DNA of 64,000 bases. It comes from Cyanidioschyzon merolae (Eukaryota). This document shows, in pieces, positions 7,047-63,720 of this stretch. The stretch lies in the NCBI GenBank assembly GCA_000091205.1, contig AP006488.2; one strand, written 5' to 3'. Position numbers and translations under genes: made by a program. Each line of letters begins with the position of its first letter. Positions within the stretch are counted from its first letter, which is position 1. The notes beneath the pieces were generated by a model. The model saw nothing but the letters and a program-made list of their open reading frames with translations. It ran no database searches and was not told the origin of the DNA.

Positions 7047-7351
7047 GCGTGCCGCTGTACAGAGACGCTGCGCAAGAGCATACAAGTTACTCGTTCGTTC
7101 GCATTGTAGCAAGCTTTGGAGGATCCATGGTACTTGCATGGCTTTGTAAGCGCTTCTGTGACACGTTCTTGTTGACGCGACCCCGCACTGCCCATCGAGC
7201 CGGACGCTTTCCGGAAGCCGTGCTGATTGCAAGAGGCCAGCATATGGTACCGCCCGAGCGCTTCAATCCTTAGAGCAAGTGTTTACTCGGCCGTTATCAT
7301 TAGTCATTGCAGGAAAGGTAATCGTCGCAGTAGTCGTTTACATCGATGTCA

Positions 7352-8800
7352 GAATAAAGCGCAATTGGTTCCCTAGCTCGGACGTACACTCCGTAGTTTG
7401 GGTCGCTTCCCACTGGTATCAACACCTGAGTTGCAGGCTTTTTCTGCGACTGCGTCCTCCCGCTCTCTCGTATCTGCGGCTTCAAATAAGACCGTCTCCC
7501 CTGTACCTCGAGCTCCGTTGTCACTAGTCGGACGGTATTGATGGTAGCGTTCATGGTCCGATTTCGCTGTGTCCGGCTGCTGTCGACGCATTCCACGCGC
7601 AGACGGGTGTTGTTGCGATCCAGACTGCGGCTTGCCATTTTCATCCGCTCTGGACATAGATTCCGTGCTCCATTTTCACAGTAGTGAAACTGGGCTACGG
7701 TCAGGCGCTCCCGCATTTCTTAGACGCATTCTCCTCCGAGGACCATGCTGTGACGTATGAGCTTTTCATTCATCGCTGGGCACATGTCCGTATCGGATAC
7801 AGCAGACTCCACTTGACTCACTCCTCTATTTCCGCGCCTGAGTGCCATAACCCAGGATCACACGCTTGTTCCTTGCGATCACTATGACGAGTATGCTGTC
7901 CGTTGCACGCGCACACTGTTTCAGTCTACAGCGTATTTGTGGAACGCGATGCCGTCCATAACGAGACATGTGCCAGAAGGTGAACCCTGCCTGGAGAACA
8001 AGTCGAGAAATTTCGATCGGTCCAGGATCCTTTCGTGCAAAGTGATGAAGCACGCTCCGACAGCAGCAAATCGCTGAGGTGACTGAAAACCGAGTCCGTG
8101 ATCGTCTTCCATAGAAACGCGAGAGACGGGAGCTCCCGCGGGCATACCCCGGCGAGAGGTATCATGCTGCTGTGAAATTCCATTTCGAGCATGGCCACGT
8201 AGAGAAGAGAGTTTGTCTTTCGAACGGAGTCGATTATTTGAAGTGCCAAGTTCGGAAAAATTTCGTCATGAAATTATGAACGCCTACTCAAGGAATGACA
8301 TCGAGTTTTTTCTTCGTCGTCCATCCAGAGGTGCGAATACCTGCGCCCACAAGTTGCCTTGAGACAGAGAGATTGAAAACTTGATGAATGTGCGATTGGA
8401 ACGTGCTACACACGTTACGAAAGAACAAGAATGGACGCTTATACGCATGGACTTGATAGTGATATCGGTTATTTTAGGAACCTTTGTTCGCGGGCGTCGC
8501 GAATCGTCTTCATTCTGGTCGCGTCATGGATTTCAGCGGAAAAGCGTCGAAGAAGCGACGTCGAAAACACGCCCGAGCAACTTGGAAAAACTACGTATGG
8601 ATCCGCAATTTCTCTTTGATGCAATTCGGATATTGAAACTGCAAATGTGAAAAACAATTCGCAAAACAATCGACACGCAGCAACAGAGCAACCACTTCAG
8701 TGTTCCACATTGGTCTTAAACATGAGTGTACTGCCAGAGAGCCCGGCGAGACTCCGAGAACCCGAATTCATAGCCACTCGCGAACAACGTACGGCATCCT
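7352..8800 (-). mobile_element. RT-bearing repeat family A, copy A1 (old, decayed)
   Basis: The plus strand is collinear with 24219-25560. Minus-frame peptides are QIIDSVRKTNSLLYVAMLEMEFHSS (RT motif 1-2 like), GFQSPQRFAAVG and FTFAVSISEL. The 138-aa ORF 7300..7716 lies inside it. The upper boundary is approximate. Confidence 0.6.
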
Positions 8801-12199: not shown

Positions 12200-13700
12200 T
12201 GGTGTCGCCAGACTGGTATCTATCCATACTGGCACACAGTTCGACAGGTGCTCTTCATCGGGTACACAAGCTAAAGTTTGGGTTTCTTCCAATTGTCGCA
12301 AACGCAGGCTATTACGAGCTTATTCTGCAACTGCATCCGTTCGCTTTCTCTTCTTGCTGGATTTACATTCGCCGGTCTCTCCTTCCGTCAAGATGCGATG
12401 TCGGCGGTCGAGGGTTATTGACGGCAACGTACAAGTGCTGATTACGTCGCTCATCGCCGTGGTCAAAGCATCTCATGCACAGACGAAAAGTCGCGATCAA
12501 CGCCTCGCTTGCCATTTCCATTGTCTTGTTCGTGCCCAGCGTTGGTGCGCTCTTCACTGCCGCGACACATGGCGGTGTGTTCAGATGCTGTAGCATATCG
12601 TGCATACCGCTTCAACGAATGGCCGTCCCGTGGCGCCTGAACGCTTGCTTCATCGTTCGGTACATGCTGGTGAAGATTGCTGAAGGCGCTCTACGATACG
12701 CACTTCCGTTTCCGTAACTGGTGGTGTACCCTACACGCACACGGGCTTGATGTGGGCGATGCCCTCGGCGAGTACGGCGTCCGCTGCAAGCGCACGCTCG
12801 TCTATTCGATCGAGGAGTTCTGAAACGCAATATTCTCCATGATAAAACACGCACCGGGAGCAAGTTCCGGACTCGAGAAGACGCCATAAGGCCTCAACCC
12901 GTGTTGGCAGCCTTCGTGCCAAGCGGTAACGCGCTGTCCACTGTAAGCGATCGCAGCGTTGCCTGAGGTCTGAGTTCAAGATTCTTTTCCATGCAAGTGG
13001 AACAAAAGGAAGCCTCTTGGTGAACAGCCCGTACGAGATATCATGCTGCTGCTGTTGAATGCAGTTTCATCGATGTCCGCGAAGCGGTTAGATTCTCTCT
13101 TTCGAATGGACTCCATTATTTGACATGAAAAGCCCGGTAAAATTTTGGCAGGTACTTGTGAACAAGCCGACAAGAGACGAGGTCGATTTTCTGTTCCATT
13201 TCAATCCAGTTGGATGCGTTGCTGCGCCAACGAGATGACTTGAAACACAATGTTCTAAAACTTCAAGCACGGGTGATTTGAGCATGCTACGAGTAAGGAC
13301 GGGAAACGAATGGAGGCTTCTGCGAAGGCGATGGATAATGATATCGGTTATTTTATGAACCCTTGTTGGAGGGTGTCGCGAACCATCTTGGTGACGATGG
13401 CGAAACGAATTTCAGCGTGGAGAGTCGACGGATCCACTCCAAAAACATAACCGAGAATACTAAAATTACACACGAATCCGCAAGCACTTGTTCCAGCACC
13501 TCGAGCGTCGAGGATGGACATGTGAAAAAATTCGAAAAAAATCGAAACGTTTCAGCCTTATCAACCAGAAGGTGCAGTTGCCAATGATCAGCGGACGATT
13601 GCGCTCCGGACAGTGGCACAATCGACACCTGCACCACGTGGCCAAGTATCCGCATGTCGAAGGTGCGATTCCCAATACGTCTGCCTATGGACACTTCACC
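12200..13700 (-). mobile_element. RT-bearing repeat family A, copy A2 (old, decayed)
   Basis: The plus strand is collinear with the 24219-25560 unit (for example ctaaagtttgggtt, attctgcaactgc, gtgccaagcggtaacgcgctg). Minus peptides are FADIDETAFNSSSM (KAFD-type RT motif) and VMFLEWIRRL. Confidence 0.6.
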
Positions 13701-19864: not shown

Positions 19865-20149
19865 GAGCACGACTGTCACAATGTACTACTTTGAAGTGCT
19901 CCCCAATCCAGCCACTTTAGCCGTGCTATGTGCACTCCCAGGATCCGGGATCGTCTAAAGTGGACCGAATGCCCCTTGACGAAATATCCTGCACCCAAAA
20001 CTCTGCTCTGCGGTGCTGCGCAAATGTCAGCCGCAGAGGCTACGAGCAGGAAACTCGCTCCATCATCGCCGCCGCTGGTACGCAGGATCGACTCAGATTC
20101 GTCGATCAGTTCAACGGTTGCTTTCTGATCGCGGCGGCGGCGGGCGCAC

Positions 20150-20886
20150 GAGCGGTCTACGTGCAACGCTGCGATCAGCGAGATGTGACGATGCGGTGCT
20201 GCAGCGCGTCACATCTGCTGCAGCATGCGCATCACCGGAGGACGCTGGCCTACGGAAACGTTTTGTCCATGAAAAAGATCTGCTGCTGCATCGGATTGCA
20301 GCAGCTATTGTCTTTCACCAGGATTCTGTTCCACATCCAGTAGCGTGGCATCAAATGCTTTTCCGCGGTTCATAGCAGATATGTTCGAAGTGTGTTTATT
20401 TGGAGAAACAAAAGATCCATGGCACAGGAATAGACGTGGATGTCGGGCATCCTGGAGCGCTGTCATCGATGATCGCCAGAATGAAACGGAAAAACCCTCT
20501 TTTCGCCGACTATGGAGCGAAGGAGAGGAAGAGCAACAAGGGGAGATGCACGAGAAGCGGTGCTTGCACAGCGGGACGGTGACTAAACTGTAGAGGCACA
20601 GAGCGCACGAGTTCAAGGAATCCTTGCATTGGTGCGTTCAACAGTGGCAAAAGACGCATGGAGTTCATCAACCGAGACTGTAACGCCGCTGTGAATATCA
20701 TACAATGAGTGGCGTTGTAGACGAGACCCGAGGAGCTAGCGAAATCTAATTTTATTCGGCAAACTCTCAGGCTCGAGAGGTGCCTTGATAAACTGAAACC
20801 GAAAGCAGGCGGTCGGTCGAAAAAGTTGGGAGACGCCTGCGTATGGGTATTCATTTACCCACCATGGTTGTGGGATATTTTTCGTT
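20150..20886 (+). mobile_element. TnpB/Fanzor-like gene relic, family C copy 1
   Basis: The plus frame gives ...NSGKRRMEFINRDCNAAVNIIQ* at 20664-20708, then (V)AL*TRPEELAKSNF. It is collinear with 44736-45650 and 35680-36215 (reverse). It contains multiple stops. The lower boundary is approximate. Confidence 0.6.
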
Positions 20887-22377
20887 CTATCAACGATGTC
20901 TTTCTCGTCGATGGACCATGGGCAAGCGTGTTTAGCTCATCTGGAGGTTCGCGGTTGCACAGGCCCGACCGGAGCCCGAGTTAGGGGGCCTCTTCTCGCT
21001 GGCGGACACGTCTACATAGCACCCGACGAGCAACGTCTAGCGGATGAGAGTCGTTGCCTTTTGGTAGCGCACAGCGAGCGATAAGCAGAGGAAGGTGCCA
21101 GTTTTACGCATGGACCTGAAACGGTGCTCGCGCAATGCTCGGAAAAGCCTCACAGAATATCGGCAAGTGTTCGTTCGTTCATTCAGCGTTTGGAATTGAT
21201 GAGGCTCTGGATACCTGTGTCTCCCAGTGGTTTCCAGAGAGTCGGGGCATGTGTTGTGTTCTTTCCCAGCCGTGTCTTCATCCTCGCGGATTCTGCCGAG
21301 GGGCGCGCTTCACGTCGGAGCGCGGTAGCTTCCGCGCCATCCCGGGCAACACGGAATTCGTTCTGCTGCTGTGGTGCATTCGCCGCTGGAGTGTCGACCT
21401 GTTCGGCACTGTGTTTCTTTCGTGCCGCTCTGTCTCGAAACGCTGTGTCCTGTGCGAGTCGGCAGCCTCCATCGACGGAATGTTGAGGTCGACTCTCGAG
21501 CGACGCTTCACGCACGGTCGTGCACTTGAAAAAACACTTCATTAACGTTCGGCGAAGCATCATGCTCGCATGCAACTCGTGAATAACATTTTGCCAACGA
21601 GAAATATCTCAGCGGTTTGCCGAAAGTATTTCTCATTTCGAAACGCGGTGGAATTGAGTGCTGCAGCCAGCCATATTGAAGCGCTGTAATGGGAACGCGC
21701 TTTCAGAGGCACGTGCACGGGCAAGAGAGCCTCTTCGGTGCTCTACTTCTGGTCGAGCACCAAGAGCACGACACTTGAGCGATGTGACGGCGGACGGATG
21801 ACACCCGTTGCATCCGGCCACGGTAACGCTACTGGATAAAAGTAGTGGCATGATGTAGACAGAATATGGAATTACAGCATACCCACCGCCATAGTGAGAT
21901 GCGGGACGCTTAGTACGGAAAAGTTACGCATGTACTACTTCCTGTGCCACAAGCAGACTTTCTGTCAAGGTACGAAACGCTGCGTACCTACATCTTTCTC
22001 CTGGACGCGGCGAACGAGGTATCTGCAGATGCGAGCGCACGCACTTCCATTGCAGCCAGCACATTATCGTCCATATTTGCGCGATCTATCCAAAATGAAG
22101 GCAATCTTCGCTGTCGCGTGTCTGTACTGAGAGGCAAAGAGCAAAGCCCAATTCCTAGGCGAGCACGCTTCTGGTATTTATGACGGCGACGGCAATCGTT
22201 TTGCAGAGATACCGACTTACGCGGGGGTATATCCGACGCCGCGGGGAATGGTTTAGACGAAATCGCGTGTACAGCAGAAACGTATCGATATCCTGGACCA
22301 CAGGCATTTGGGTGTGACAGCTGCTGCTGCTGCCGAGTCCAAAACGCCGCTATGTTGCAGTGAGGCTCCCAGCCACC

Positions 22378-23793
22378 TCATGAGGTCACAGGCGGCAACC
22401 TGTTTTTCCCGTGGATGAAAAAGCAGTATGGATGACGATACCGATACTCATGCCAGCGATACGGTTCGTTTCCGAGATTGTGAATAAACTCGATCTGGGC
22501 AAAATACTGCAGTCGAAATGATCGATCCCAGAACTCCTCTGTGCTGGCAAAAAGCTGCCGATCAATCGCAACATCAAACGCCGCAGAGCGGTGACGATTC
22601 CAGACTCGCCACAGCCATCGACAGAAATCCAAGTCACCTACTCGATAGAGCGCATTTCCGTTCATCTGCGTTCGATGCGCATCTTGGTGGTACTGCAGTC
22701 GCCAGGAGATGCGTGCATCCAGGTTGGTGCTTCGCAGCGGAGAGCCCAGCATCCACAGACGACGAGCATCCGCGAGCGCTACGATCCGACGAAGCGCATC
22801 ATTGTACTGCGCTTGCACCGCATTGCAGTCTGGTTCGCACCAAAACAAGTATCGTACTCGGGGTAGACTCGTGGACTCATGTGGACCACTAAAGATGCTT
22901 CGCTGCGATGACTGTCGCCCCAGGGACAATCGATGGAAGCGCAGCGCCCTGTGTTCCGTGTTCATCCAGGGCTCTGCGGAGCGTTCAGCCGGCTTGCCGC
23001 CAGCGGCGGCCAGGCTCAGAGCAAACACCAAAGGATAGAACATACTGCCGGTGCCTGCAGAGTCACGTTCGGAAAGCCATGAGCTAGGCCTGTAACGATC
23101 AGCAGTGCTGTCCAGACGCGCCTCGATGAGGTACACACCATGATCCAAACAGGAAGGCCATGTTGGAGCTGTCGCTTTTCGGAGCGCGTCGACGACACGA
23201 AGGTAGAGGTCGCTATCCCAGATTGTGTTGATATAAAACGCCAACACTGTTTGACTCGAAGTGCGCTCTGCAGTCTCTACCGGGCAAGCTAGTGGAAGAT
23301 TCCAGTGAATCCACCGCTCAACTGCCTCGAATTGATGTTTTGCAAACGGCACAACAATCACTTGCCCACGGGCATGCGTCTGCCGCATCGACGACGACCT
23401 ATCCATCGAAGATCGCTTCATGGAATCAGGAATATCCTCGCTTACTCTCCGATGCAGAATGTGTTGAGGCGTTAGAAGAGTCCATGGAAAGCTCTCGTTG
23501 AACCAGGCGTTACCAGGTGCTACCATGAACGCGTTTCGGGGCGTTGCGGCGTTCCATGGACTGCTCCCGTTATACCATGCAGTCGCAGTCGCCGGTCCCT
23601 CGCTGCCGCTAGACTGCAGAACGGCATATGGTGATAGGAGACGCACCATACCCCACTGCTTATCGCGCTGGTCAAGGTTTCGGTTCTCTATACCCGCCAA
23701 GTCGTGCGTGAACAACCCCGCGCGGTGAAAGAAAAGGATTCGCGTCAGCAATATCTTACACAGTTGTAAGAAAACACGCCAGCAGCGCTTCAT
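22378..23793 (-). CDS. Type II membrane protein, possibly glycosyltransferase-like (function uncertain)
   Basis: Intact 471-aa ORF with ATG at 23793 and an N-terminal anchor (VFLQLCKILLTRILFF). Motifs YLFWCEPD and QMNGNALY recall nucleotide-sugar transferase-like families. No family assignment can be made by eye. Confidence 0.65.
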   Translation of the reverse strand: MKRCWRVFLQLCKILLTRILFFHRAGLFTHDLAGIENRNLDQRDKQWGMVRLLSPYAVLQSSGSEGPATATAWYNGSSPWNAATPRNAFMVAPGNAWFNESFPWTLLTPQHILHRRVSEDIPDSMKRSSMDRSSSMRQTHARGQVIVVPFAKHQFEAVERWIHWNLPLACPVETAERTSSQTVLAFYINTIWDSDLYLRVVDALRKATAPTWPSCLDHGVYLIEARLDSTADRYRPSSWLSERDSAGTGSMFYPLVFALSLAAAGGKPAERSAEPWMNTEHRALRFHRLSLGRQSSQRSIFSGPHESTSLPRVRYLFWCEPDCNAVQAQYNDALRRIVALADARRLWMLGSPLRSTNLDARISWRLQYHQDAHRTQMNGNALYRVGDLDFCRWLWRVWNRHRSAAFDVAIDRQLFASTEEFWDRSFRLQYFAQIEFIHNLGNEPYRWHEYRYRHPYCFFIHGKNRLPPVTS

Positions 23794-24218
23794 CTTTCCG
23801 CGTTAGTGCTGCTGAGTGCGTTTAAGACGGTACAACAGACGAGCTCAAGTCGCTGCCGAACGGCTGGACGTTTCTGACGGGTCACTTATCCATCGCTTCA
23901 AACGTGCTGGAAGACACACTTTATTCAGTTGTCTTTGTCGCGGAGCAACTATTCAGTACCAACGTCAAATTTGTAACTTGTCCTGGAAGCGTTGCCGTTC
24001 AGAGCTTAGAGCGTGCCAGCAACGCGTTTAGTGGAAGAAAGACCCGCGACTGCCGGAAAAGGATGCGAACACCGTGCAGGGCAAGCACCCGTTCCACGAG
24101 GAATCAGCAGATACGCCACCACTTCAACTCAGTTCAACTAGAAACGAGTGAACCTCGAGCCCTTGACACAGTATCCATCATATCGACGAAGCGCTCTTGA
24201 TGGCTCGATGCAATTACA

Positions 24219-25560
24219 TCAGCATAGAACGGAAAAGGTTTTCCGATTCGTACGCACCTACCAAAGTTTAGGTTGTACCCGCGCTCATCAACACCAGAAT
24301 TTGCGGGCTTTTTCTGCGACAGCTTCCTTTGCCGCTCGCTTTTCTCCAGTTTAAAGCAAGGTAGTCGTATCTGCAGCCTAAGGCTCCAGTGTCAGCAGTC
24401 GGAGGATATACCGATGGCGCCAATAACGCCTAGCTTTCGTTGCTTCCCGCAGTTGTGAACGCGTTGCATGTGTAGAAGGTAGCTGCGATCTAGACACTTT
24501 GCTCGCCGCTATCCTATTCGCCTTTCGGTGAAACCTCGGTGCGTTCCGCAAAGCGATTACACGTGCCTGTGGTCGGTGTTGCTCACAAGTCCACAGCATG
24601 TTCTCCATCGAGCGCCGTACCATGGTGCATCGACGCTTGCTTCATTACTCGGTCCGTGCGCTTGACTGGCGAAGAAGGCTCTCTGCGGTGCTTGCCTCCT
24701 TGACAGCGTCCAGCGCGGTACCCGGACGGTCGTGGACTTGTTCTTGGCGATACCTCCCGCGCGTATGCGTTCCAGTGCATGGAAAAGGATACGCGTTTCC
24801 GTCCAATGGATAGCCTGTTGAACGCAATATGAACCCTGCTGAAACCATTACCCAAAGACAAGTCCAGGTAATAGAACGAATCGGGGGAAATTGTCGCGTG
24901 TACGCTCCTGTAGTGCGAAGCGGTTGCGTATTGCCCGCTGTAAGCGAATCGCTGTGGTGACGGAGGCTCAAGACCCTTTACCACACAAATCATTGAACGT
25001 GGAGTCTCTGGGAGCATATCCCATGAGAGGTAGCATGCTGCTGACGAATGCAGTTTCGTTGATAACCGCATATAGAAGAGGAGGAGTCGTTCAAACGGAA
25101 TCGAATCTTCGTGGTGACCATTTCATTCCAATTTTGACATGAAGATATCGAAAAGTCGTCAAGAAGTGACGCCGAGCATTCGTCCTCAAAACAGAGGCGC
25201 GAATCCCTTCGTCCATGAGTTGCCTTGAAATAGAAGGATCGCAAATTAGGTGAATGCGTGTTCTGAGCACACTACTCATAAAGAAAGGAATATAGTGGAT
25301 GCTTGTGCACATGAACAATTCCATCGTGTCTACGTTTTACCAACTGTTGTCTGAGTGCGTCGGGAGCCATTCTGATATCGGTGACGGAACCTATTCCAGA
25401 GACAACGCGTCAAAGAAGCCACTCCGACCACACGATCGAGAGTCCTAAGAACACATTCGAAGCCATAAACCCTTTTGTTGCACCTCAGACGTCCAGGCTG
25501 AACGTCAACCAAAACGAAATCGGGAACAAATACCGAAACACCTGAACACAGGGATCCAAT
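24219..25560 (-). mobile_element. RT-bearing repeat family A, copy A3 (young 3' module 24219-25160 plus diverged 5' part)
   Basis: The 942-bp module is near-identical to 28704-29645. Minus-frame peptides are AVINETAFVSSMLPLMGYAPRD (KAFD-type motif), ATISPDSFYYL (SP..LF-like), WNAYAREV (YADD-position) and CCGLVSNTDHRHVC (CCHC-like). No frame stays open beyond 162 aa. Confidence 0.8.
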
Positions 25561-25756
25561 CAACCTTCCTGTTTTGCTCTAACAATGAGAGCGCGTCGAC
25601 TGCGAGCTTCGCAGGCAGCGTCTCCTCGAATGGCGAGGCGTTCATCGCGCCTCTGAACGCAAGCTCTATGCCAGGCGTCCGGGAAGAGCCTCCTTCATAG
25701 GCGTTCTGCCGGACACGCTCCGAAGGTACTCACAGGCAGCACATCATAGGTTTCTG

Positions 25757-28540
25757 ATGCAGTTGCAGTCTCTAGGACAACAGCGAGGACAGCGATTCAG
25801 CGCTATCTACCACGCACTCGTAGTGCGAGTCGTTGCGCTCTGTCTCTTGGTCGCTTTTGCGAGTTTAGCCATCAGAGCCAGAGCAGCTACAACCCAGGCT
25901 GCTCTAAGTGGTGAACTTGCTGCATTTGGCATTGATCTGGGTTCAGAGAACGTGCGCTTTGCAGCGAGTCAAGCTATCGCTGGAATCCAGGTTCTCACAA
26001 ACGAGCAAAGCAAACGAGAGACACCTGCTTTGATCGCTTTCGTTCCGGTGAGCGATGCACGAATAGAGCGACGGTTCGGGGAGGCTGGAACAAGCCCTGC
26101 GTATGGTCGCTGGCCGGAGTACGCCGTCCGAAGCGTTCGTCGACTTTTCGAACGAGGAAACTGCTCTGCTGGTACGGATCGGGTCGTCACGCTCCATGAC
26201 CAACGAGTCCAGCCGCATCGTACGTGTCATGTTCAACTCGGAGGTCGCCAAGACCTAGCTTTCACCGATACGGAGCTCGCCAGCATGCTCTTTAGGTACG
26301 TGCAGCGAAGAGCGTACGCGGCAATAAGAGCTACAGGCGTATCATCGCGTGAACAGAGCACCACAACGCCGGCACCTGAGGATGTCCTCGGCACGGATGC
26401 TGTCCTGACAGTGCCGATATGGTTTCGGCAGTCCCAACGGGCTGCTTTAGTCCATGCTGCGCAACTCGCAAACTGGAATGTGCGTGGACTCGTGTCGACG
26501 CCCCTGGCTGGAGCGATTCGGTTCGCTCTAGATCGAGAGGTCGAGCAACCCCAGACCGTTCTGTTCGTGGACATTGGGGCCCAGGGAACCACTGCTGCCC
26601 TCATTCGCTTCACTCCTGCAAATGACAGCGCGTTTAGATCCCAGACTGGCGGCGGGCTTGCTCCCATCCAGGAAGTGGAGGTGCTCGGCTACCGGTGGCA
26701 TCCTGAGGCAGGTGGCGCTGCCCTCGACGAGTGTCTCGTCGAGGACGTGCTATCGCGTTTGCGAGCACAGTCGCTTTTGGCGCCTTCGATAGATAATGAC
26801 GAACGTTTTCGCTTACGCCTTTCTAGAGAAGTCCATCGTGTGCGGGAAATCCTCAGTGCGAATCAAGAAGCGTTGCTCACAGTGGAGCTCCCGACCGGCG
26901 AAGAGCATCATCTGCTCGTTACGCGTGCAGCCTTTCAGCATGCCTGCCGCAACGTGTTCGAGCGCATCGCCGCCCCGGTCCAGCAAGTGCTTGCGGATCA
27001 CCGTGTGGGGACCGATCAGCAGCCGCTGCATGCTTTGATCCCTCTGGGTGGAGGTTCACGGACCCCAGCTATTGCTGAGGAAATACAACGGCTCGTGCCG
27101 GGTCATCTCTGGCGGAAGACAGTGAACGCCGAGGAGGCAGCTGTAATGGGAGCCGCCTTCTATGCCGCCGCGTTGTCGCCATTCTTTCGGGTGCGTCCGC
27201 TGGTCCTCTCAGATGTGTATCCACGGCCCTGTAAGGTCTGCGTAGCGAATGCGTCGTCGAAGGGGCCACCCTATGATCGATGCGTTATCGTGACGCCGCG
27301 AATGAACAGCAACACCAACCATATCCTCCAGGTTCGGATGCCTGTGACACGCTTCGACACGGAGCTCTATTGGTTCGAGGCAGGGAATGCTGCGAACTTT
27401 TGGGATGACGCCGCACTTGTGTCGCACTGGAACCTCGAGAACATGTCCTTGGGCCAAGATAACTATCCCGCGGAATTGGAGCTTGCTTTTGAGATTGATC
27501 CGCTCACTGCACCGGTTCTCAAGCGTGCTGAGCTTTATGTGCTGCAGATGCCACACGCTCACGCATCTGCATCGAACACCATGCACCGAAAGGATGAAGA
27601 GGCGTCCACAGCGCCGCCCCAGCAGCTCAGTAACGCAGGTACGGAGCAACAGCCACAACAGCGGGTGCGCGGACGCGGGTCAGGCACCGGCGCTGCGGCA
27701 GCCCCTCGGGGCTCAGCCTCGACTGTGCCAACCGGCGAGGCCGAGACCGAGCCCAGCCCATCAGTGGTGCCTCGTGGGCAGCGTCACTCGCTGCGGGCAA
27801 CAATGCTTTACTCTGTATGGACATTTCCGGAAACGAGCGCGAAAGCGTCAAGAATTCGTTTGGAAGCTTTGGATGCTCTAGATCGCGAACGCGAACGGAG
27901 CGCGTACCTGCGCAACGCTCTGGAAGCAATGACTCTTCGACTGCATGAAGAGTTGGCCTTAGGTGCCCCATCTGGTACATTGAGCAAGCTCCCAGCGCGC
28001 TTGTGTCTCGAGCCAGAGCGAAGCCTCATTCTAGAGCGTCTGCATCAAGTGGAATTGCGAATTCACCAAGAATCCAGTGCAGCGCTCGCCGTCAACGACT
28101 TGGAACAACTTCTCTGGTCGCTCGAAAATGCAACCAAACCAGTTTATGCCCGGATGGAACGTTACCAGAAGACCCTTGAAATCCTGCAACAGCTGGAACA
28201 GTGGATTCGCCAGCACCAGAAGGATGCACTGCAGCTACGAAAGGGTAGAGGGGTCCAGCGGAAACCCCCCGATATGCAGGAGCTTTTGGCTCGCGTTACA
28301 CATCTCGCAGAGCAGTTGCAAGCCCAACCGTCCGCAGAATTGGTGGATGCTGCTGAACAGCAAGCGCGCCTCTTTTCGGAACATTTCGCCACGGCGCTGC
28401 TATCCTTGAACCAGACACAGGCAGAGACTTTTACTGCGCCGCTGGGATCGCAGACGAAAACCGGGCAGACCGCTGAGCCGCCCAGCAGTGCAACGCAAAC
28501 CGTAGCTCCGGAGCACGGGATGGATCACACAGAACTGTAA
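25757..28540 (+). CDS. ER-lumenal large Hsp70 (Grp170/HYOU1/Lhs1 type)
   Basis: ATG at 25757 and a signal-like segment VVALCLLVAFASLAIRARA. Hsp70 NBD motifs are FGIDLGSENVRFA, LTVPIWFRQSQRAAL and VLFVDIGAQGTTAALIRF. It has the long C-terminal extension typical of Grp170 and ends in HTEL (a KDEL-class signal). Confidence 0.9.
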   Translation: MQLQSLGQQRGQRFSAIYHALVVRVVALCLLVAFASLAIRARAATTQAALSGELAAFGIDLGSENVRFAASQAIAGIQVLTNEQSKRETPALIAFVPVSDARIERRFGEAGTSPAYGRWPEYAVRSVRRLFERGNCSAGTDRVVTLHDQRVQPHRTCHVQLGGRQDLAFTDTELASMLFRYVQRRAYAAIRATGVSSREQSTTTPAPEDVLGTDAVLTVPIWFRQSQRAALVHAAQLANWNVRGLVSTPLAGAIRFALDREVEQPQTVLFVDIGAQGTTAALIRFTPANDSAFRSQTGGGLAPIQEVEVLGYRWHPEAGGAALDECLVEDVLSRLRAQSLLAPSIDNDERFRLRLSREVHRVREILSANQEALLTVELPTGEEHHLLVTRAAFQHACRNVFERIAAPVQQVLADHRVGTDQQPLHALIPLGGGSRTPAIAEEIQRLVPGHLWRKTVNAEEAAVMGAAFYAAALSPFFRVRPLVLSDVYPRPCKVCVANASSKGPPYDRCVIVTPRMNSNTNHILQVRMPVTRFDTELYWFEAGNAANFWDDAALVSHWNLENMSLGQDNYPAELELAFEIDPLTAPVLKRAELYVLQMPHAHASASNTMHRKDEEASTAPPQQLSNAGTEQQPQQRVRGRGSGTGAAAAPRGSASTVPTGEAETEPSPSVVPRGQRHSLRATMLYSVWTFPETSAKASRIRLEALDALDRERERSAYLRNALEAMTLRLHEELALGAPSGTLSKLPARLCLEPERSLILERLHQVELRIHQESSAALAVNDLEQLLWSLENATKPVYARMERYQKTLEILQQLEQWIRQHQKDALQLRKGRGVQRKPPDMQELLARVTHLAEQLQAQPSAELVDAAEQQARLFSEHFATALLSLNQTQAETFTAPLGSQTKTGQTAEPPSSATQTVAPEHGMDHTEL

Positions 28541-28703
28541 GCAATTGCGAGTATGGCGTACAACGCAAGAACTGAATGCATGGAGTGAGCAGGGAAAAGC
28601 ACCTCAGATCCTGGACACAGTCTGCATAGGTTTATTTGGTTGGGATGCGAAGTGCTTTAGGCATTCGTATCCGGAGTTTACAATAAATTTATCTATGGAC
28701 GGG

Positions 28704-30110
28704 TCAGCATAGAACGGAAAAGGTTTTCCGATTCGTACGCACCTACCAAAGTTTAGGTTGTATCCGCGCTCATCAACACCAGAATTTGCGGGCTTTTTCT
28801 GCGACAGCTTCCTTTGCCGCTCGCTTATCTCCAGTTTAAAGCAAGGTAGTCTTATCTGTCGCCTAAGGCTCCAATGTCAGCAGTCGGAGGATATACCGAT
28901 GGCGCCAATAACGCCTAGCTTTCACTGCTTCCCGCAGTTGTGAACGCGTTGCATGTGTAGAAGGTAGCTGCGATCTAGACACTTTGCTCGCCGCTATCCT
29001 ATTCGCCTTTCGGGGAAACCTCGGTGCGCTCCGCAAAGCGATTACACGTGCCTGTGGTCGGTGTTGCTCACGAGTCTACAGCATGTTCTCCATCGAGCGC
29101 CGTACCATGGTGCATCGACGCTTGCTTCATTACTCGGTCCGTGCGCTTGACTGGCGAAGAAGGCTCTCTGCGGTGCTTGCCTCCTTGACAGCGTCCAGCG
29201 CGGTACCCGGACGGTCGTGGACTTGTTCTTGGCGATACCTCCCGCGCGTACGCGTTCCAGTGCATGGAAAAGGACACGCGTTTCCGTCCAATGGATAGCC
29301 TGTTGCACGCAATATGAACCCTGCTGAAACCATTACCCAAAGACAAGTCCAGGTAGTAGAACGAATCGGGGGAAATTGTCGCGTGTACGCTCCTGTAGTG
29401 CGAAGCGGTTGCGTATTGCCCGCTGTAAGCGAATCGCTGTGGTGACGGAGGCTCAAGACCCTTTACCACACAAATCATTGAACGTGGAGTCTCTGGGAGC
29501 ATATTCCATGAGAGGTAGCATGCTGCTGACGAATGCAGTTTCGTTGATAGCCGCATATAGAAGAGGAGGAGTCGTTCAAACGGAATCGAATCTTCGTGGT
29601 GACCATTTCATTCAAATTTCGACATGAAGATATCGAAAAGTCGTCCAGCGACGACGTGGCGTTCTTTGCATTATCAGTCCAGCGGCATCAATTTTCTTGA
29701 ATGGAAAACTTGGGAAATTTGAAGCATGCTTGATTTGAGCATGCTGCAGGCAGGTAAACGAGAAGCATGGAGGCTTGTGTGTCCTTATTCCACGATGATA
29801 ACTGTTATTTTACGGACCCGTTCTCGATGACAAGGTGACTCGTTTTGATTCCAGTGAGGTACAGAATCCTCGAATCAAAGGCTAGAACGAGCCATACCGA
29901 CGAAACGAGCGAACATGTTAAGACGACAGATGAATCGGCGGGTCCTTTTTCATGCAATTGGAATGTCGAGGATGTGCATCGAAGAAAGGTCGGAAAAAAC
30001 GAAGGGCAGGAACGGAACAGGCAATGCAGTACTGAATGTACACCCGACACGGATGCAGCGTTTGTTTTTTATGTTCATTGCGTGCATAACGATACCCATA
30101 TACCATTGAT
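28704..30110 (-). mobile_element. RT-bearing repeat family A, copy A4 (young 3' module 28704-29645 plus diverged 5' part)
   Basis: It starts at the same base as A3 and A6 (tcagcatagaacgg). The diverged part is collinear with A2 (gatttgagcatgctgc...). The minus peptide ILYLTGIKTSHLVIENG matches NLYLTGSKIIRDAFEQEF of A6. Confidence 0.8.
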
Positions 30111-30781
30111 TCCTTGCACGGTTTAGCAATTCTTGGAAAGCCGGATACTCCTATCCAGAGATTACAGTATCTTTGCAGAGCTTGCTAGCGCTCAGAACTC
30201 TGTTTCACAAGTCCGCTCTGCACCACGGCTATTTCAAGAAACGAGGCTGATGCTTAAATAGAGCACAAACGACTTCATGGCTGGGAAAGCACGCGTCCGA
30301 TAGCGTAAAGGCCGCTAAACGTAAATGAACTCCAGACTCCTCGATCTAGAACGCAGCCTTTTCCGGGTCTGAAAGCTCTGCCCCGCCTCAAGACCGCCGG
30401 ACGCACCGATGCTTCTTAGAGGTGATGGTGTGCGCTCCAGCGGAAAGCATGGAGTGGTTTCCCGACTGCTGCCCTCGTGCAATTGTCTACGGATTAGACC
30501 GCTTCCCAGGAGCATCATCAACTTTATATAAAGGCTTGGACGCTCTGGGAAACAGTCGAGGAGCAGCGCAAAGCTCCTTTTGCGAAGCATAACGACGAGG
30601 CCAATTTCCGACTGTATCGAACGACTTTAGCGGCGACAGCCTCGAAGCTCACTTAACTGATGCAAGTGAGCACTGCTTCATCAGAAAGCAACACGAGCTT
30701 GGTCAAGGCGATGCTCGGAGTCACGTTTCGTGAGAGCTAGCAATAAGGGTCTCACGCATAGCGCCGCGGAACGTTTTCGAG

Positions 30782-33700
30782 CTAAGAATCCAACGCGTCA
30801 AGTACGTCACCCACGAGACCTTGACGCACAATCCGCTGACCCGAAGGATCCACATACGTAAAGCGGAAGCGGAACGTCAATGGACGTGTGTCATGCCCAT
30901 CCTTGTGCAGTCGAAACCGCTGCGTTACCCGCTGAGGTTGTGTCGACGGGGGCAGGCTCCCCGACGTAGCTGGCATCATTTCGAGCAGAATATAGTTCGG
31001 TACCGATATTTGGAATAAAAATTCCGTAAAGGTCCGCGGACTCTTGTTCATGAACTGGGCTTCCAGATGGTATACCTGTCGCTGTTGTCCATCGACAGTC
31101 TCCGAGCTGGTGCGTTGGATCTGTATGCGGAGCTTTTCGTCGTCGTAGATGACGCGACTCGCGGACGCTGACCCGGCTGACGCTTCCTCGCTCGAATTCA
31201 CTTGATCCAGGACGCTTTCCAGGATATCGAGATGCCACGCCGCTCTGCTGTCGTTTTCGTTGGTGGATTCGCTCGAAACTGCAACCGGTACGGCATCGGC
31301 CAGCAGAGTGCGCTGGCGTGGTGCCTGCACGGCTGGTTGCTCGTCCGGTGCTCGTGAACCGGACGTTTCCGCGCTTTCCTCCTCGTCATCAAAGGAAATG
31401 AGTTGTGCGGCTCCGGCGTTCATCCGTGAGCGATGCTGCGAGCCGAGGAATCGAATGCTCACGATTCGAGAGCGCGCTGCACCCTGTCGCCGCCAGGCGA
31501 GCAAACTTGATGAATCTGGTAGCGAGAATGCAGACTCGAGCTGTTCAAAGGTCTCAGACGGAGCGTTCTCCAAAACCACCAGGTATTCTCGAGCTCGCTG
31601 TTGCACGTCTAGGCTCAAAGCTTTTGATTGCTCGGAGAGGAGTCGAGCGCATGCACCAAACACTTCACTCGTCTTGAGCCGCGTCCGCAAGGCTGTGCGA
31701 AAGAGCACATCTACGGCTAAACGCCCCAGGGTTGATGTCCGGTGCAGATACGCCGGTCTTTGCCGTTGACGAAGAGACAGATCCCGATCACCAGGTAGAT
31801 GAAGCACCAGTTCCGCTAGTTTCCAATTGAGACTATCCTCTGCGGCTGACGGGATATCCGCGCTGTTCACAGATGAAACACCATTTTCTGCGGCTTCGCT
31901 GTCTTCACCAGCGCGTTCGGATAAAACTGCCGCACTCGTTGCAGTCGGAGCTTTTGACGTTCCGAGTTCGAAATCAGGTGCTTGTTCTATCGCCGCATTC
32001 GTTGCACGTGGAGCTTTTGACGTACCCCGTTCACGCTTAGATGCTTGTCCTATCTGGGCGCTCGCATCCGCGTCTTTTGCGTATGTACGAGGGCGAGCGC
32101 TATGCGGAATGTCGTGCTCAGCAGCAAACGCAAGTCCAATATGCATGAGCAGGGTCACAGCCGAACGTCTCCGCGCAATTTGCTCTAAAACAATATCCAT
32201 TAATCGGTAAAAGATAGCCATACCAGCTTCAGGGTTCGCCAACATCGCCGTGACTACCTCGTCAGCGAGCTCCGCTTCGATCTCTTGCACTACCGAGAGC
32301 CCTGGGCCGGCGTACGCATCACCAGCAACATCGGAGCCGCCACCGACGCGAGGTTCGTAGATGCGGTTGCGCTGATCACCACTAGCACCACTACCGGGAT
32401 CGCCAGCACCGCCCCTGAAGGCGTCGTCGTCGATGTCATCATCGCCGGTCGGTAGCGTCTGAGCTACCTCTACGAAAAGGTCAAGTCTTCGGTACACGTC
32501 CGGCTCTGTCTCCTCGAGGAGCAACCACAAACGCTGAAGAATCTCGTAACGGTGCAGTGCTTCCCGCACGCTCTGTAGGTAGGATACCAACTCCTTGCAG
32601 AATCGCTGAAGCGACGCTGCAGTGCCTATCGCAAACAGGAGACTCAAGGCGCGTCGCTGAATGGTCGGGTCCGCATCACGAAGGCACTCGAAAATCGTCT
32701 CCTGGTGGGCGGCAACACTCGCCATGCTCCGCTCTGCAGCCTGTGGGAGCAGTTCTAGCGCAACAAGGCGCAAGTTCGGGTCACGGCTACGTAGAAAGTC
32801 ACCGAGTATCTGAATCGCGAAAGCCAGGTTTCTCGAAGGCGAGCTCTCTAGCGCCAAAATCGTGCGAACACATTCGAGGACAACTCCATGAGAGCGTTCA
32901 CTTGAGCGCGCAACATCGATAAGTGTTCGGTGAAGCTCCTCTGTCGCCGCCGAATCGTGCTGCCCCAGTCGTCGAAGCATCTTCAAGATGCTGCACTGGA
33001 GAAATGGATCGCAGACACCCTGGAATCCGTATTCTGGATTGAAGCCAGCTGTTGCGGTTTCTCGAAGCTGCTGCACCAACAATGCCTGATACTCGTTGGC
33101 TAGCATCCCATACAGGGCACCCGGCGCTACCGTCAGCAGCTCCTCGAGCAGCGCCAGACCGCTAATCAAGACACCGTGGTGGTGTGGCATCTTCAACAGC
33201 TCCAGGGCGGCAGCTCGAAACGAGTCCGCTGGTTCTGGAGTACGTCGACATAAACGGAGCGCCGCAAGCGCTGCTTTCTTCCGTATAAAAGGGTTCCGCG
33301 AGTGCAGGAGACGTTCCACGTCGGGAGCGAGGTCCTGACCGATCTCCGCTGAAGCCAGGTTCGCCACTACGTGTAACGCGAGAGCCACAATCTGGTGGTT
33401 GTCGCTCTGGAGATCCTGTTTCAAAACGTTCACTACGAGAAGAAGAACTTCAGATTGTTCGTCGAGCAGTACCTGCAGCGCCATGTACCCAATGCGTTTG
33501 TCTTTGAACTTGGGACTGGCACAGAGTTTGACGCACTCCATGATACCGAAATCGACACCATAGCCATTTAGGTAGAAAAACACGAGTTTTGCAACGTTGC
33601 GTCGGCGGAAGTAACGATCTTCTTGTCGAGATAGGTCCCGAATCTGAGCGAGCTGCTTTTTGACAAACTCGCGCTCCGCCGAGGCAGTCCTTTGCTTCCG

Positions 33701-42163: not shown

Positions 42164-42929
42164 GCCCAGCATCTTCATAGAAGACGTGCTCCAGACGCCA
42201 AGATTTTGCGTGGCTCGTATACCAGATGAAAACTTGCCCAAAGCCTAGAACATGGTTGCAAGGAACCCTGGGTCCAACTGGATCATGCAGGATGCGCTTT
42301 CGTAAGGGCATGTGGTAGCCACGGTCACCGCACCGGTATCGATGCACCGCGGCGCATAAACATGGCTCAGATGCAACGGGGCAACGGTTGAAGGCTACCG
42401 GGTAGCGTCAGCTGTGGAGCTGCACGGGTACGTACACAAGCAGAGCAGCGAATCATGTGCAGCGGGAGCTCATTGTCGCAAATTCATCATGGTTTCGTTA
42501 CAGCATGCTTGTAACTAGCGAATACACGACATAGGCGCGCAAAAGTCTTTTATATTACCGTTGTGCGTTCCTGAAACATGAATGCTGTGGCTGTTCAGCG
42601 AGTGCATGCCACTTCGCACGATGAACTCCGCTGTCGTGCTCGAGAATGCATGGCCCATGCCATCAGCGGTGGCACTGAAACGAAACCTGCTGCAACTTCG
42701 ATGGTCGGTCGGCGAAAAGCATGAACCTGTCCCATGGTAATCGGCGTCATGGTTGTAACGCTCTCTGTTCGACACTGGGACACCGCGCCGGACTAGGTTG
42801 CGCAGGTCCATCACATCATCATGAAGCTTCCGCTGGAGACATAGGACTTTGCCATCTCTTCAACTCGTGTCCCGAATGTTTTGTCAAATAAGCCTCTACA
42901 CCCAAGTCGGACGAGAATAGAGCAGATAA

Positions 42930-44330
42930 ACTTTGCCAACTCGGGTGCATACTCCAGAGTTCTCTATTCTTCGAGCCATCACGAGCGCCGTCCTTGGCAA
43001 TGTCTTTCTGCGACTCCTTCTTCCTTATCTCTTATCTCCGGTATTGAAATACGCCAATCCCTCCTGTCCCGCCAGCTTTTTTGTCAGCTGTCGAGGGACG
43101 TTGATCCCAGCGCTAGTCCCGATATTGCCGGTTGCGGGTGTTGACGACACATTTCATGCACTGGCGCAGGTTGAGATCTAGGCTGCGCATGCCATTGCCA
43201 TCTTCTCGTTTGTAAAGCGTGTTGGTGTATCCCTCGCAGCGGTGACACTCTAGTGTGATACGATGTTTCGAGATGTCCACCGCATCTCATGCTCTGGGAG
43301 CCTCCTCGTAGCACGCGAAGCAGTCCAGAGGTCTCGCCTCTATGCCCTAGTCCATTTCCGCACCCATCGCCATCCCCTATAATAACAGGCTTATTATGAG
43401 CGACTTTCTCGGCGAACGCGCTATCCGCTGCGCGCGCAAGAGCACGCTGTTCCATTGAATAGAGAGGATTTCTGGAACGCGATGTTTTCCATGATGAAAC
43501 AAATACCAGAAGGAAAATTCAGACTGGAGACAAAGTCGATCAATTTCGAGCCGTCTGCGCCCCGTGTGTGTCATGCGTTGGCGCGCGCTCTCTCCACTCG
43601 GAGCGATCGTTGCGAGGACTCAAGTCCGAGTTTAGGACCCTTTGCCATTCGAACAGAAGACACGGGAACCTCTCGGAGCATAAACATTGATCGAAATACT
43701 GCAGGTGACGAATGGCGATTCGTCGACGGCCACAGCCCCAGGCAGAAATGTCTTTCGAGTGAAATCCATTGTTTGACATGTGAAGTTCATTGAGTTTTCG
43801 ACACGAGCTTTTGAACGATTCGTCAAGGAACACGCCGAGAGTTCTTCCTCATCAATCCAATGGCGTGAGTTTTTGTTGCGCCTTCGAGTTGCTTTGTGGC
43901 AGCTTGACCGAGTATTTGAAGAATGCGTAATTTGCACGTGTCGCATGCAAGGAAAAGAGAAGAGTGGCGGTTTGTAGGTATGACTCGATTGATGTTATCT
44001 GTTTGTTTACGAATCCCTGATCGCGGGCCTTGTGAATCATGTCGATGACGATGTCGTGACAAATCCCGGCGGCAAAGTATCGAATGAGCCATTCCAAAAA
44101 GTCCACCGCAAATCCGAAACCACTGCGTAGATCCATATGCCACTACTAGTGCAGTTTAGATTCACAGGTTGCACATAAATGAAAATATCGGAATATAATC
44201 GAAAAGCAGGAAGAGAACGAGCTGTTCAGCGTTCCGATTTGATTCTGAAACAGGACTAGTACCAGTGGGTTGTCTGGTTTCCGAAAGCAAACATATACTC
44301 GGGAAGTTTTCGTTGGATTTATCGATCTCA
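42930..44330 (-). mobile_element. RT-bearing repeat family A, copy A5 (old, decayed)
   Basis: Minus peptides are GFGFAVDFLEWLIRYF...IHKARDQGFV, AVAVDESPFVTCSISINVYAPRG (KAFD-type position), LSIQWNSVLLR and MRCGGHLETSYH (CCHC-like). The plus strand is collinear with the A3 unit (ggcaatgtctttctgcgactcc...). Confidence 0.6.
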
Positions 44331-59039: not shown

Positions 59040-60560
59040 TCAGCATAGAACGGAAAAGGTTTTCCGATTCGTACGCACCTACCAAAGTTTAGGTTGTATC
59101 CGCGCTCATCAACACCAGAATTTGCGGGCTTTTTCTGCGACAGCTTCCTTTGCCGCTCGCTTATCTCCAGTTTAAAGCAAGGTAGTCTTATCTGTCGCCT
59201 AAGGCTCCAGTGTCAGCAGTCGGAGGATATACCGATGCCGCCAATAACGCCTAGCTTTCGTTGCTTCCCGCAGTTGTGAACGCGTTGCATGTGTAGACGG
59301 TAGCTGCGATCTAGACACTTTGCTCGCCGCTATCCTATTCGCCTTTCGGGGAAACCTCGGTGCGCTCCGCAAAGCGATTACACGTGCCTGTGGTCGGTGT
59401 TGCTCACGAGTCCACAGCATGTTCTCCATCGAGCGCCGTACCATGGTGCATCGACGCTTGCTTCATTACTCGGTCCGTGCGCTTGACTGGTGAAGAAGGC
59501 TCTCTGCGGTGCTTGCCTCCTCGACAGCGTCCAGCGCGGTACCCGGACGGTCGTGGACTTGTTCTTGGCGATACCTCCCGCGCGTACGCGTTCCAGTGCA
59601 TGGAAAAGGGCACGCGTTTCCGTCCAATGGATAGCCTGTTGCACGCAATATGAACCCTGCTGAAACCATTACCCAAAGACAAGTCCAGGTAATAGAACGA
59701 ATCGGGGGAAATTGTCGCGTGTACGCTCCTGTAGTGCGAAGCGGTTGCGTATTGCCCGCTGTAAACGAATCGCTGTGGTGACGGAGGCTCAAGACCCTTT
59801 ACCACACAAATCATTGAACGTGGAGTCTCTGGGAGCATATTCCATGAGTGGTAGCATGCTGCTGACGAATGCAGTTTTGTCGACGCCCGCAACGAAGGCA
59901 GAAATCGTCATTCGAACGTGATCGATTATTCGAAAGGACAAGGTCAGCGAACTTTCGGCATGAGCTCATGAACAAGCTTTCAAAGGACGACCTCGTCAAG
60001 TATTCTGCCTCGTTTTTCCAGCGGTGCCAAAATGACGCCCGACGAGTTGCCTTGAAATCCAGAGATCGAAAACTTGAAGAACGCATGCTTGCATTGTTCT
60101 ACTCGATGGCGAACGCGAAAAATGGATGCAGGAACGTATGCATCGGATCGTGATAGAGAATACTTTACGAATTCTTGTTCGAAGGCGTCGCGAATGATCT
60201 TGCTTCCGGTTAGGTATAGGTTTTGAACGACCAAGCGCCCAACGACGCACTTGGCGAATACGACCAAAGTCCGAAAACTACGTATGAATCGAAAGGTCCA
60301 TTTTGCTGCACTTTGAATCTAGAAGCTGTTCCCATGAGAAACCACTCGATATGCAGGGATCGAGCGAGCATCTCAACGTTCCATGGTACTCCAACAGATC
60401 CAAGCACGCTTGAGCCCAGCGGCCATAAGCAGCACCAGACCGAGAGCAGTGTGCTCTGCCCGCGCAACGATCCAAAAATGTACAGTTTACAGAACCCTGT
60501 CTCGGAAATGCGTCCATCAAGCGAACCTCACGACATTCAACACCTGTGCAACCGCCAACG
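59040..60560 (-). mobile_element. RT-bearing repeat family A, copy A6 (young 3' module 59040-59877 plus diverged 5' part)
   Basis: It starts at the same base as A3 and A4. Minus peptides are NLYLTGSKIIRDAFEQEF (RT motif-1-like L.n..Ki..k.l), AFFKFSISGFQGNSSG (Q.GF.pg.S-like) and RIIDHVRMTISAFVAGVDKTAFVSSMLPL (D..KAFD-like). Confidence 0.8.
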
Positions 60561-62309: not shown

Positions 62310-63720
62310 ACGGTGCACCCGTATACAGCGACGCAATGGACAGCGTTGTTGAATCCAGGTGCGTACATGATATCGTTTGGGTTTCATCCTATTATCGTGA
62401 ACGAGAGGTTTGAAGGCCTCCTTGTGGGAGCTTCCTGTTTCCGGTTTCATATCTGCTGCTGTCATTCCGCCAGTCTCTGCTTTACTACTAGTTCCGTTAT
62501 CAGCTGTTGAAAAAACGCGGTTACCGCAGCATCATATCGTCCTGATTTTGCTACTTCCGGTTGTTGTTTATGCATCTCATGCCGAGACGGTAGTTAGGAT
62601 CTAGATTCGGTTGCAGTTCGCGTCCTGTATGAGAACAGCCTCGGTGGAATCAATGCAGCGGCGATTCTTGACAGTGGTTAAATGTTCCTGGGTAGGCGGC
62701 GCACATCCTCCATCGAGCGCTGCAGTCCAGCGCCCGAACGCGTGCTTCATCGCTCGGGTTGCGTCCTGGACGGGAATGGAAGGCCCGGGTCGATGCCCTC
62801 CTATGATTCCGCGTATGGTGCCGTACGCTCTGGGTAGGGACTTCATTTTCAGGGTGCCCTCGGCGAGTAATTTTTCAGCTGCACTCGCAAGCACATAATA
62901 TCCCATCCGATGCGAAATTTTTTGAAGGCGATGTTGTTTATGATGAAACCTGAACCCCAAATGAAAATCTAGCCTGGAGATCAGATCGAGAAACGTCGTT
63001 TCGTCGACGCTTCATTACTGTCGAGTGGTCTTGCACGCTCCATTGAGCGCGATCACAGCAAGAAAAACGTCCGAGTCCGATTCCTTTCGCCATCCTCAAA
63101 CGAGAGACCGGAGCCTCTGAAAGCATATGCTGTGAGAGGCATCAAGCCGCTGCGGGTGCCGTTTCTTAGATACACCACGAAGAGAGGAGAATATATCTTT
63201 CGGACGGAATCGATGATTTGACGTGACATGGTCTGTGAATTGCGGCATGGGCGTGTGAGCAAGTCGCAAACGGACGACGTCAAGAGCTTGTCGTCAACGA
63301 TCCAGCGACGCGAGTTGCGAGGCGCACTATTCACCTCGATATAGAGAGATCGAAAACTTGAAGTATGCATGATTCGGGCATTCTTCACCAAAGAATAGGA
63401 GACAAGTGGATGTTTTTACCTATGAACTCCATCCCATTGTATATAACTTTAGAATGCTTGTTCAAGGCCGTCACGACTCATGCTGATTCTGGTGATGGAG
63501 CGAATTCGAGATGCGCAGAGTCAGTGCAGCTATTCCCAAAAAAGACCGGGAGCCTTGGAGTATCGACGAGTGAATCCATACATCCATATTTCTGCACTAC
63601 AAATATCGAAGTCGTACACCTAAAACGCACGCGAAAATCGACAGGCAGGAACAGAGCGAGCAGGCTAGTTTTCCATCGTAATCTGACACGAATGTCGCGG
63701 TCATGACCTGCACGTCAATG
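62310..63720 (-). mobile_element. RT-bearing repeat family A, copy A7 (old, decayed)
   Basis: The plus strand is collinear with the A3 unit from cgtacatgata (about 62330) through gacggtagttaggatctaga, cctccatcgagcgctg and atgaaacctgaacccc to gagagatcgaaaacttgaag. Minus peptide: SRQIIDSVRKIYSPLFVVYLRNG. Confidence 0.6.

Follow-up and report, generated by a model that had tools for sequence, protein, structure and literature searches.

Within the 64,000-nucleotide stretch of DNA analysed here (the window), three old transposon relics carry the same module of 0.84-0.94 kb, which is nearly identical among them and gives way abruptly, over about 30 bases, to family sequence that is 51-55% identical. 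Non-allelic (ectopic) gene conversion among the three relics is the best explanation of this pattern, and we hold it with moderate confidence. The three elements, A3, A4 and A6, lie on the same strand and are separated by 4.5 and 30 kb. Their module copies are:

24219..25160, minus strand: module copy A3, 942 bp.
28704..29645, minus strand: module copy A4, 942 bp, starting 164 bp past the stop codon of an HSP70-like gene.
59040..59877, minus strand: module copy A6, the shorter tract, 838 bp.

The initial annotation had described equal-length, near-identical 942-bp blocks in A3 and A4 with about 12 mismatches in the first 390 nt, and a third copy, A6, sharing the first 838 bp, the start base and most A4 variants. 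All of these statements held when the sites were counted one by one. A3 and A4 differ without gaps at 20 of 942 positions, 17 of them within the first 838 bp and exactly 12 within the first 390 nt. The corresponding counts were 19/838 for A3 and A6 and 12/838 for A4 and A6, and of the 17 sites that distinguish A3 from A4 over the 838 bp, A6 agrees with A4 at 12. Self-BLAST aligned 24219-25163 with 28704-29648 at 97.8% identity (945 bp, no gaps), 24219-25070 with 59040-59891 at 97.2%, and 28700-29627 with 59036-59963 at 95.1%.

The edges of the module are sharp. In ungapped 50-nt windows, identity at the left edge common to A3, A4 and A6 jumps from 7-20 of 50 to 50 of 50 at offset 0. For the A3/A4 comparison, successive 30-column windows near 25160 gave 0.93, 0.90, 0.78, 0.54 and 0.40, and for A3/A6 those near 25056/59877 gave 1.00, 0.83, 0.69 and 0.45. 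At both right edges (~25160/29645 and 25056/59877) one to three windows suffice for identity to drop from at least 0.9 to 0.4-0.55, a step and not a gradient, as had been suspected from reading the letters. Homology past the break, which had also been claimed, was recovered as well, since A3, A4 and A6 are colinear with the family profile from end to end at 51-55% identity. Such a step excludes independent insertions of uniform age, in agreement with the earlier argument against them. The sequence beyond the right edges consists of:

25161..25529, minus strand: the old part of element A3 that escaped conversion, from the N-terminal portion of the transposase relic; it shares 51-52% identity with its counterparts in A4 and A6.
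29646..30024, minus strand: old unconverted remainder of element A4.
59878..60370, minus strand: old unconverted remainder of element A6.

The first 104 bp of the A6 remainder (59878-59981) align with the segment shared by A3 and A4, yet are diverged. The module starts about 10-12 nt inside the element and not at the element end. The outer left-end nucleotides, with the consensus TACACCCGAG, can be recognised in A1, A5, A6 and A7 (the other copies are listed below), and only 1-5 of the outer ~12 are common among A3, A4 and A6. On the inner side the module ends within the transposase gene, and neither the N-terminal third nor the right end repeat is common to the three copies. Read on the minus strand, the module comprises the C-terminal ~2/3 of a transposase pseudogene with its DDE region, followed by the 3' untranslated part and the inner left end repeat. 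Each tract is bordered by ~12 nt of old end repeat on the left and ~370-490 bp of old remainder on the right, and the unique DNA flanking the three elements is mutually unrelated.

Judged from its sequence, the repeat (family A) is an IS630/Tc1/mariner-type cut-and-paste DNA transposon of ~1.34 kb, and all copies in the window are dead. It had initially been read as a reverse transcriptase (RT) repeat, an assignment that had to be abandoned. The minus-strand family consensus matched DDE_3 (PF13358) in Pfam at 35.9 bits (cut-off 28.6, E=8e-9), and the relic motif 'YVAIDETAF...GYAPRGS...FIMDNIAFHK...YSPR' was detected by tblastn on the minus strand of all seven copies in the window. Pfam gave no match with the six A6 frames, and the family was recognised only via the profile consensus. 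Searches for an RT domain gave no match in the six A6 frames (Pfam, E<=1), in the three minus-strand consensus frames (Pfam, E<=10), where DDE_3 was the sole domain, or in 10 further long non-genic frames. There was also no A/T run at either end of the family-A copies. Random 5' truncation, which had been considered together with the RT reading, disagrees with the finding that 7/7 copies are full length, and this argues against 5'-truncated retroposons. A solo-LTR identity (TG...CA ends) was dropped after the DDE_3 match.

The closest intact relative of the consensus, a protein designated P0136, matched DDE_3 at 95 bits and the NCBIfam IS630 family transposase at 127 bits (cut-off 100). It comes from another sample and is 38% identical to family A, and the consensus aligns with it over 82%, including the N-terminus. 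Apart from P0136, the protein search recovered relic frames only. P0136 showed weak similarity to the Mos1 and Tc3 structures, including a weak match to the Tc3 DNA-binding domain, and its N-terminal HTH_28 and HTH_Tnp_Tc3_2 matches were sub-threshold. When the right end of A7 (63667-63694) was compared with the reverse-complemented left-end consensus, 18 of 28 positions agreed (p<1/3000, probe test), while the match at the same position was 15/28 in A5 (p~0.1) and 14/28 in A1. Inverted end repeats gave no significant match in the other copies, and neither the per-copy nor the consensus tests reached significance. In A1, A5 and A6, the CAC(C/A)... of the left end has 'TA' in front of it, and decay has left the right junctions unreadable. 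Family A has in common with known IS630/Tc1/mariner elements DDE_3, a single gene and a size of ~1.3 kb, and possibly also short end repeats, a target-type TA beside the left end in several copies and, in the intact relative, an N-terminal HTH-like region. Unlike these elements at large, the copies here are all dead and end repeats could be demonstrated in only one or two of them. At the right end of A4, positions 30037-30050 read TGTACACCCGACACGG, which holds the left-end consensus TACACCCGA in forward and not inverted orientation; this may be a fragment of the end of another copy, or chance. Just left of the left end of A7 there is a (GC)n run of ~16 bp at ~62296-62312.

Using a profile built from the old copies, we found exactly seven matches in the window, all on the plus strand with the transposase read on the minus strand. 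Each copy is 1312-1352 bp long and covers profile positions 2-1341, that is, full length. The profile spans of the converted elements were 24218-25529 (A3), 28702-30024 (A4) and 59038-60370 (A6), with total element lengths of 1312, 1323 and 1333 bp, respectively. The other four copies are:

7347..8695, minus strand: A1, old full-length copy, 54-57% identical to the module.
12228..13579, minus strand: A2, old full-length copy with the best-preserved DDE relic, 'DIDETAF ... FIMENIAF'.
42914..44225, minus strand: A5, old full-length copy.
62327..63694, minus strand: A7, old full-length copy (profile match 62327-63663).

The seven relics are 52-62% identical to one another, corresponding to ~0.3 substitutions/site per copy in a rough Jukes-Cantor estimate. 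Beyond the step, the remainders of A3, A4 and A6 share 51-55% identity and the old copies 53-62%. The module itself is 54-57% identical to the other family-A relics, as the relics are among themselves, which indicates that one old lineage was lately copied and that the module does not represent a younger subfamily. Among the old copies ts/tv is ~1, GC is ~50% and CpG is not depleted, and a RIP-like mutation bias was ruled out on these grounds. The low number of indels in family A fits the low indel rate of this genome (~1 per 33 substitutions even between strains), so coding constraint was rejected as its cause. Three-base periodicity of substitutions among the old copies was weak and uninformative. 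The seven copies (7347-63694) share one strand, with neighbouring genes running both ways; the probability of this arising at random is ~1 in 64.

Family A is dispersed beyond the window, as seen from an eighth old relic at positions 9894-10874 of L023, a contig of the same metagenome organism and from the same sample as L015. This relic is 65-67% identical to A1 and A2 and lies at the end of a 39 kb contig. In two relatives with DXS 88% and 77% identical, the spacer from PEMT to the next gene is 1.1 kb and 144 bp, compared with 2.7 kb here, and family-A sequence was absent at their syntenic sites (contigs L016-L018), indicating that the family invaded after those splits. Since these contigs carry no family A, they cannot be used for dating the overwriting.

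The shared sequence was already dead when it was copied. Two features inside the A3 module, each with equivalents in A4 and A6, bear on this:

24733..25102, minus strand: DDE-domain relic (equivalents 29218-29587 in A4 and 59554-59938 in A6).
24583..25071, minus strand: 162-aa frame, a leftover of the transposase frame (equivalents 29068-29556 and 59404-59892).

The DDE relic has two in-frame stops, a frameshift, a change of the first catalytic D to N ('INETAF') and a degenerate second-D motif, and these lesions are identical in A3, A4 and A6, which means that the sequence copied had already lost its function. An active master, which the initial annotation had suggested as a possible source, is not indicated, given the stops, the frameshift and the lost catalytic aspartate in all three copies, and in the retrieved contigs the module occurs at these loci only; within the window no intact family-A transposase was found. 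The 162-aa frame has lost its ATG in A6, where the start codon is TTG. Its changes comprise 7 non-synonymous and 6 synonymous differences (n=13), a split compatible with neutrality. The previous conclusion that this frame is not under protein-level selection was therefore retained, while its wording that the frame changes 'mostly' by non-synonymous differences was too strong for a count of 7 versus 6. Outside the three loci no relatives of the frame were found among 5.8 billion proteins, in which it forms a cluster of 17, and Rfam and tRNA scans of the window gave no match.

The sharing of the module is not an assembly artefact of this window. For comparison we used JGI metagenome contigs from more than 10 samples, independently assembled and ~99% identical to the window; L001, for example, corresponds to window positions 50119-55425 at 99.4%. 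In these contigs the modules are joined to the same unique flanks as in the window: A3 to a 471-aa frame, A4 to the HSP70-like gene and to 130 nt of its own remainder, and A6 within a 12.3 kb colinear contig. L014 spans A6 and L007-L010 span A4. In every retrieved metagenome contig the module was seen only at the A3, A4 and A6 loci, as determined from the 162-aa cluster and a 24-mer scan. Two contigs were differently arranged. L003 equals one 4,485-bp A3-A4 repeat period plus 38 bp, and in L006 (4077-5004) the A6 right flank and the A4 left flank have been brought together. Both most probably reflect the assembly graph or false joins made through the module; conceivably, they are real deletion, duplication or circle variants.

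Comparison between strains pointed to exchange that may be continuing. At the A4 locus, 11 of the 16 differences between the window and the metagenome are A3 alleles of the window, and A3 and A4 differ at 7 sites in the metagenome contigs compared with 21 in the window. Divergence between strains was 1.2-1.6% in the module and 0.5-0.85% in the unique flanks, which are partly constrained coding sequence, and most of the module differences are swaps of alleles that distinguish the paralogues. These comparisons were made with short-read metagenome assemblies, in which near-identical repeats can be mixed, and the allele swaps and the raised module divergence are suggestive only as signs of continuing exchange. 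Among the three window copies, a longest-identical-run test detected no significant mosaic runs.

Gene conversion had been listed among the candidate explanations by the initial annotation, and it is the one best supported now, with the tract embedded in register and the unique flanks unrelated. Because the tract lies in register within diverged, colinear family sequence on both sides, it must have replaced resident sequence and not been inserted. The module has neither a right end repeat nor the outer left end and could not have transposed; transposition was ruled out on this basis, on its lack of function and on the in-register replacement of a resident relic. Exchange between dispersed repeat copies is known for LTRs (PMC4921805). 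We infer the repair mechanism, the direction and the timing as follows. Family A would have invaded the lineage long ago and decayed in place, after which the same already-dead sequence would lately have overwritten part of three relics, a break in one relic being repaired non-reciprocally with another relic as the template. At least two events would be required, one for the 942-bp tract of A3/A4 and one for the 838-bp tract involving A6. The difference counts per 838 bp (A4/A6 12, A3/A4 17 and A3/A6 19) suggest that the A3/A4 event was older and that transfer from A4 to A6 came last. The three ~98%-alike copies probably keep swapping short patches.

The low similarity of the elements outside the tract is one weak point of this explanation. 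The retained flanks are 51-55% identical, and the replaced sequence itself is no longer visible. Canonical homologous recombination requires similarity far above 51-55%. Another weak point is that the endpoints do not fall on clear conservation peaks. The A6 endpoint does, however, lie in the region of the DE(T/S)xF catalytic motif, in which some old copies have exact matches of up to 13 nt to the module. An identical left endpoint in separate events calls for an additional explanation, such as homology running out at this point or breakage close to the end repeat. Copying of ~0.9 kb in register between ~55%-identical sequences by a poor-homology break-repair route in this organism we regard as unlikely in itself; such a route might operate by template switching on short matches, perhaps begun at the decayed transposon end.

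Recombination between ~55%-identical DNA would not be needed if the left ~0.85-0.95 kb had been exchanged ever since insertion and the right part had escaped at the start. Under such long-standing concerted evolution, tracts would start near the left end and rarely extend, and divergence would block their extension and sharpen the edge. Old yeast whole-genome-duplication (WGD) duplicates show comparably sharp edges (PMC3924837), and the longer tract in the nearer pair A3/A4, the signs of ongoing exchange and the diverged outer ~12 nt, which fit edge erosion, agree with it. However, no gradient of intermediate divergence lies beside the edges, and the remainders of A3, A4 and A6 are as diverged as any pair of relics, so that escape at time zero would be required. 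The module is moreover a pseudogene without selection for similarity, unlike the yeast coding regions, and the closer pairs A1/A2 (4.9 kb) and A6/A7 (3.3 kb) are not homogenised. We consider this reading rather unlikely. The fixed left edge could alternatively have been set by the end repeat, if the transposase of a live relative cut near it as in Tc1; inward resection and repair from another copy would then produce a fixed outer and a variable inner edge. Family A is of the Tc1/mariner/IS630 type, C. elegans Tc1 reportedly provides a precedent, and the inner edges do vary (838 versus 942 bp). Against such transposase-triggered exchange, the window holds no intact family-A transposase, and P0136, the sole intact-looking relative found, is as distant as described above and derives from another sample. 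The outer 10-12 nt are kept and diverged, placing the cut away from the canonical element end, and most relics have end repeats that have decayed beyond recognition. This makes the transposase-triggered route quite improbable.

The fixed edge is a 3' edge and the varying edges are 5' edges on the transposase (minus) strand, a pattern that would also result if a relic transcript ending near 24219 had been reverse-transcribed over 838-942 nt and the cDNA had replaced homologous parts. This 3'-biased, cDNA-mediated conversion had been proposed earlier, but it is neither needed nor supported: the family has no RT in the frames searched (six A6 frames, the consensus and 10 further long frames), neither an A/T run nor a recognisable AATAAA is present at the fixed edge, and the low-homology problem is the same as for direct conversion. 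It is the least supported of the conversion variants and very improbable. Constraint on the module as a small protein, an RNA or a regulatory block might be suspected from the 162-aa frame, which is open in 3/3 copies, and synonymous changes are not rare in it (6/13). Still, the frame represents part of a broken transposase and lacks an ATG in A6, its relatives occur only at the same three loci in the 5.8 billion proteins, neither the Rfam nor the tRNA scan matched, and the corresponding stretch has diverged freely in four other copies of the family. DNA identity of 98% over 940 bp also far exceeds the effect of constraint on such a product, and we give functional constraint hardly any weight. 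Near-identical repeats are error-prone in assembly, and L003 and L006 exemplify repeat-induced mis-joins, but false homogenisation by assembly or polishing is extremely improbable, as reads could not cross-map between underlying relics that are ~55% identical and each module is found next to its own flanks in more than 10 independent assemblies (L014 for A6, L007-L010 for A4).

Non-allelic gene conversion among the relics, the reading we prefer, can be compared with three known systems. Dispersed Tc1 copies of C. elegans, which are active and almost identical, reportedly exchange sequence following breaks from excision, a result said to have been obtained by Fischer, Wienholds and Plasterk (Genetics, 2003; cited in PMC9635669). 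By analogy, in both cases copies of a Tc1/mariner-superfamily element at separate loci would have a patch transferred by templated repair without movement of the element. Unlike C. elegans Tc1, family A is long dead and ~55% identical outside the tract, with no active transposase in sight. Non-allelic gene conversion has also been described among primate retroviral LTR, Alu and L1 copies (e.g. PMC4921805), and in these as in family A tracts of near-identity do not match the age of the copy around them. Those events involve copies that are already highly similar and usually shorter tracts, whereas family A is a DNA transposon with tracts of 0.84-0.94 kb and saturation-diverged flanks. Pairs from the yeast whole-genome duplication undergo concerted evolution with a sharp edge (reviewed in PMC3924837) and resemble family A in that near-identity changes stepwise, inside a single duplicated unit, to homology that can barely be detected. 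The homogenised part in yeast is coding sequence under purifying selection, in contrast to the family-A module, a pseudogene with no detectable constraint. What we describe is probably a known process in a new instance, in a little-studied lineage and in the relic of a DNA transposon, notable for how strongly the tract contrasts with its flanks.

The window comes from an intron-poor eukaryote with 54% GC and encodes a plastid-type DXS whose best named relatives are from red algae at 67-70% identity. Exact look-ups of its proteins returned no record. The A3 and A4 modules, whose starts are 4,485 bp apart, are direct repeats that bracket one gene:

25757..28540, plus strand: HSP70-like gene (927 aa).

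Beside A3 lies the 471-aa open frame (22378-23793, minus strand), which has no Pfam domain, is ~99% conserved and is called as a gene in several metagenome contigs. The distance from the ATP-grasp gene to the GFO/IDH/MocA gene is 19 kb in the window (19880-38883) compared with 429 bp in L018 (7408-7835). Located in this extra block are the 471-aa frame, the HSP70-like gene with A3 and A4 on either side, an adaptin gene and, at 34964-35509 on the minus strand, a frame with an LSM domain. Another old repeat family, 'B', consists of ~570 bp units of 63-72% identity at 20328-20886 (plus strand), 35675-36200 (minus strand) and 44722-45307 (minus strand), and its longest frames had no Pfam match. 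B1 and B2 are mutually inverted and lie near the edges of the extra block.

These results correct the annotation, in that the commonest repeat of the window is a dead IS630/Tc1/mariner transposon and not a retroelement. The module is probably a clean natural example of repeat copies partly rewritten by repair, and a single segment is thus no sufficient guide to how old a repeat is. The 942-bp direct repeats around the HSP70-like gene are a ready substrate for deletion or duplication of that gene, and they break or mis-join short-read assemblies. If donor and recipients were ~55% identical at the time of copying, the finding bears on the minimum homology for templated repair in this lineage. 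A poor-homology route, if true, could alter old repeats, and by extension also diverged paralogues, far below the similarity that recombination normally requires.
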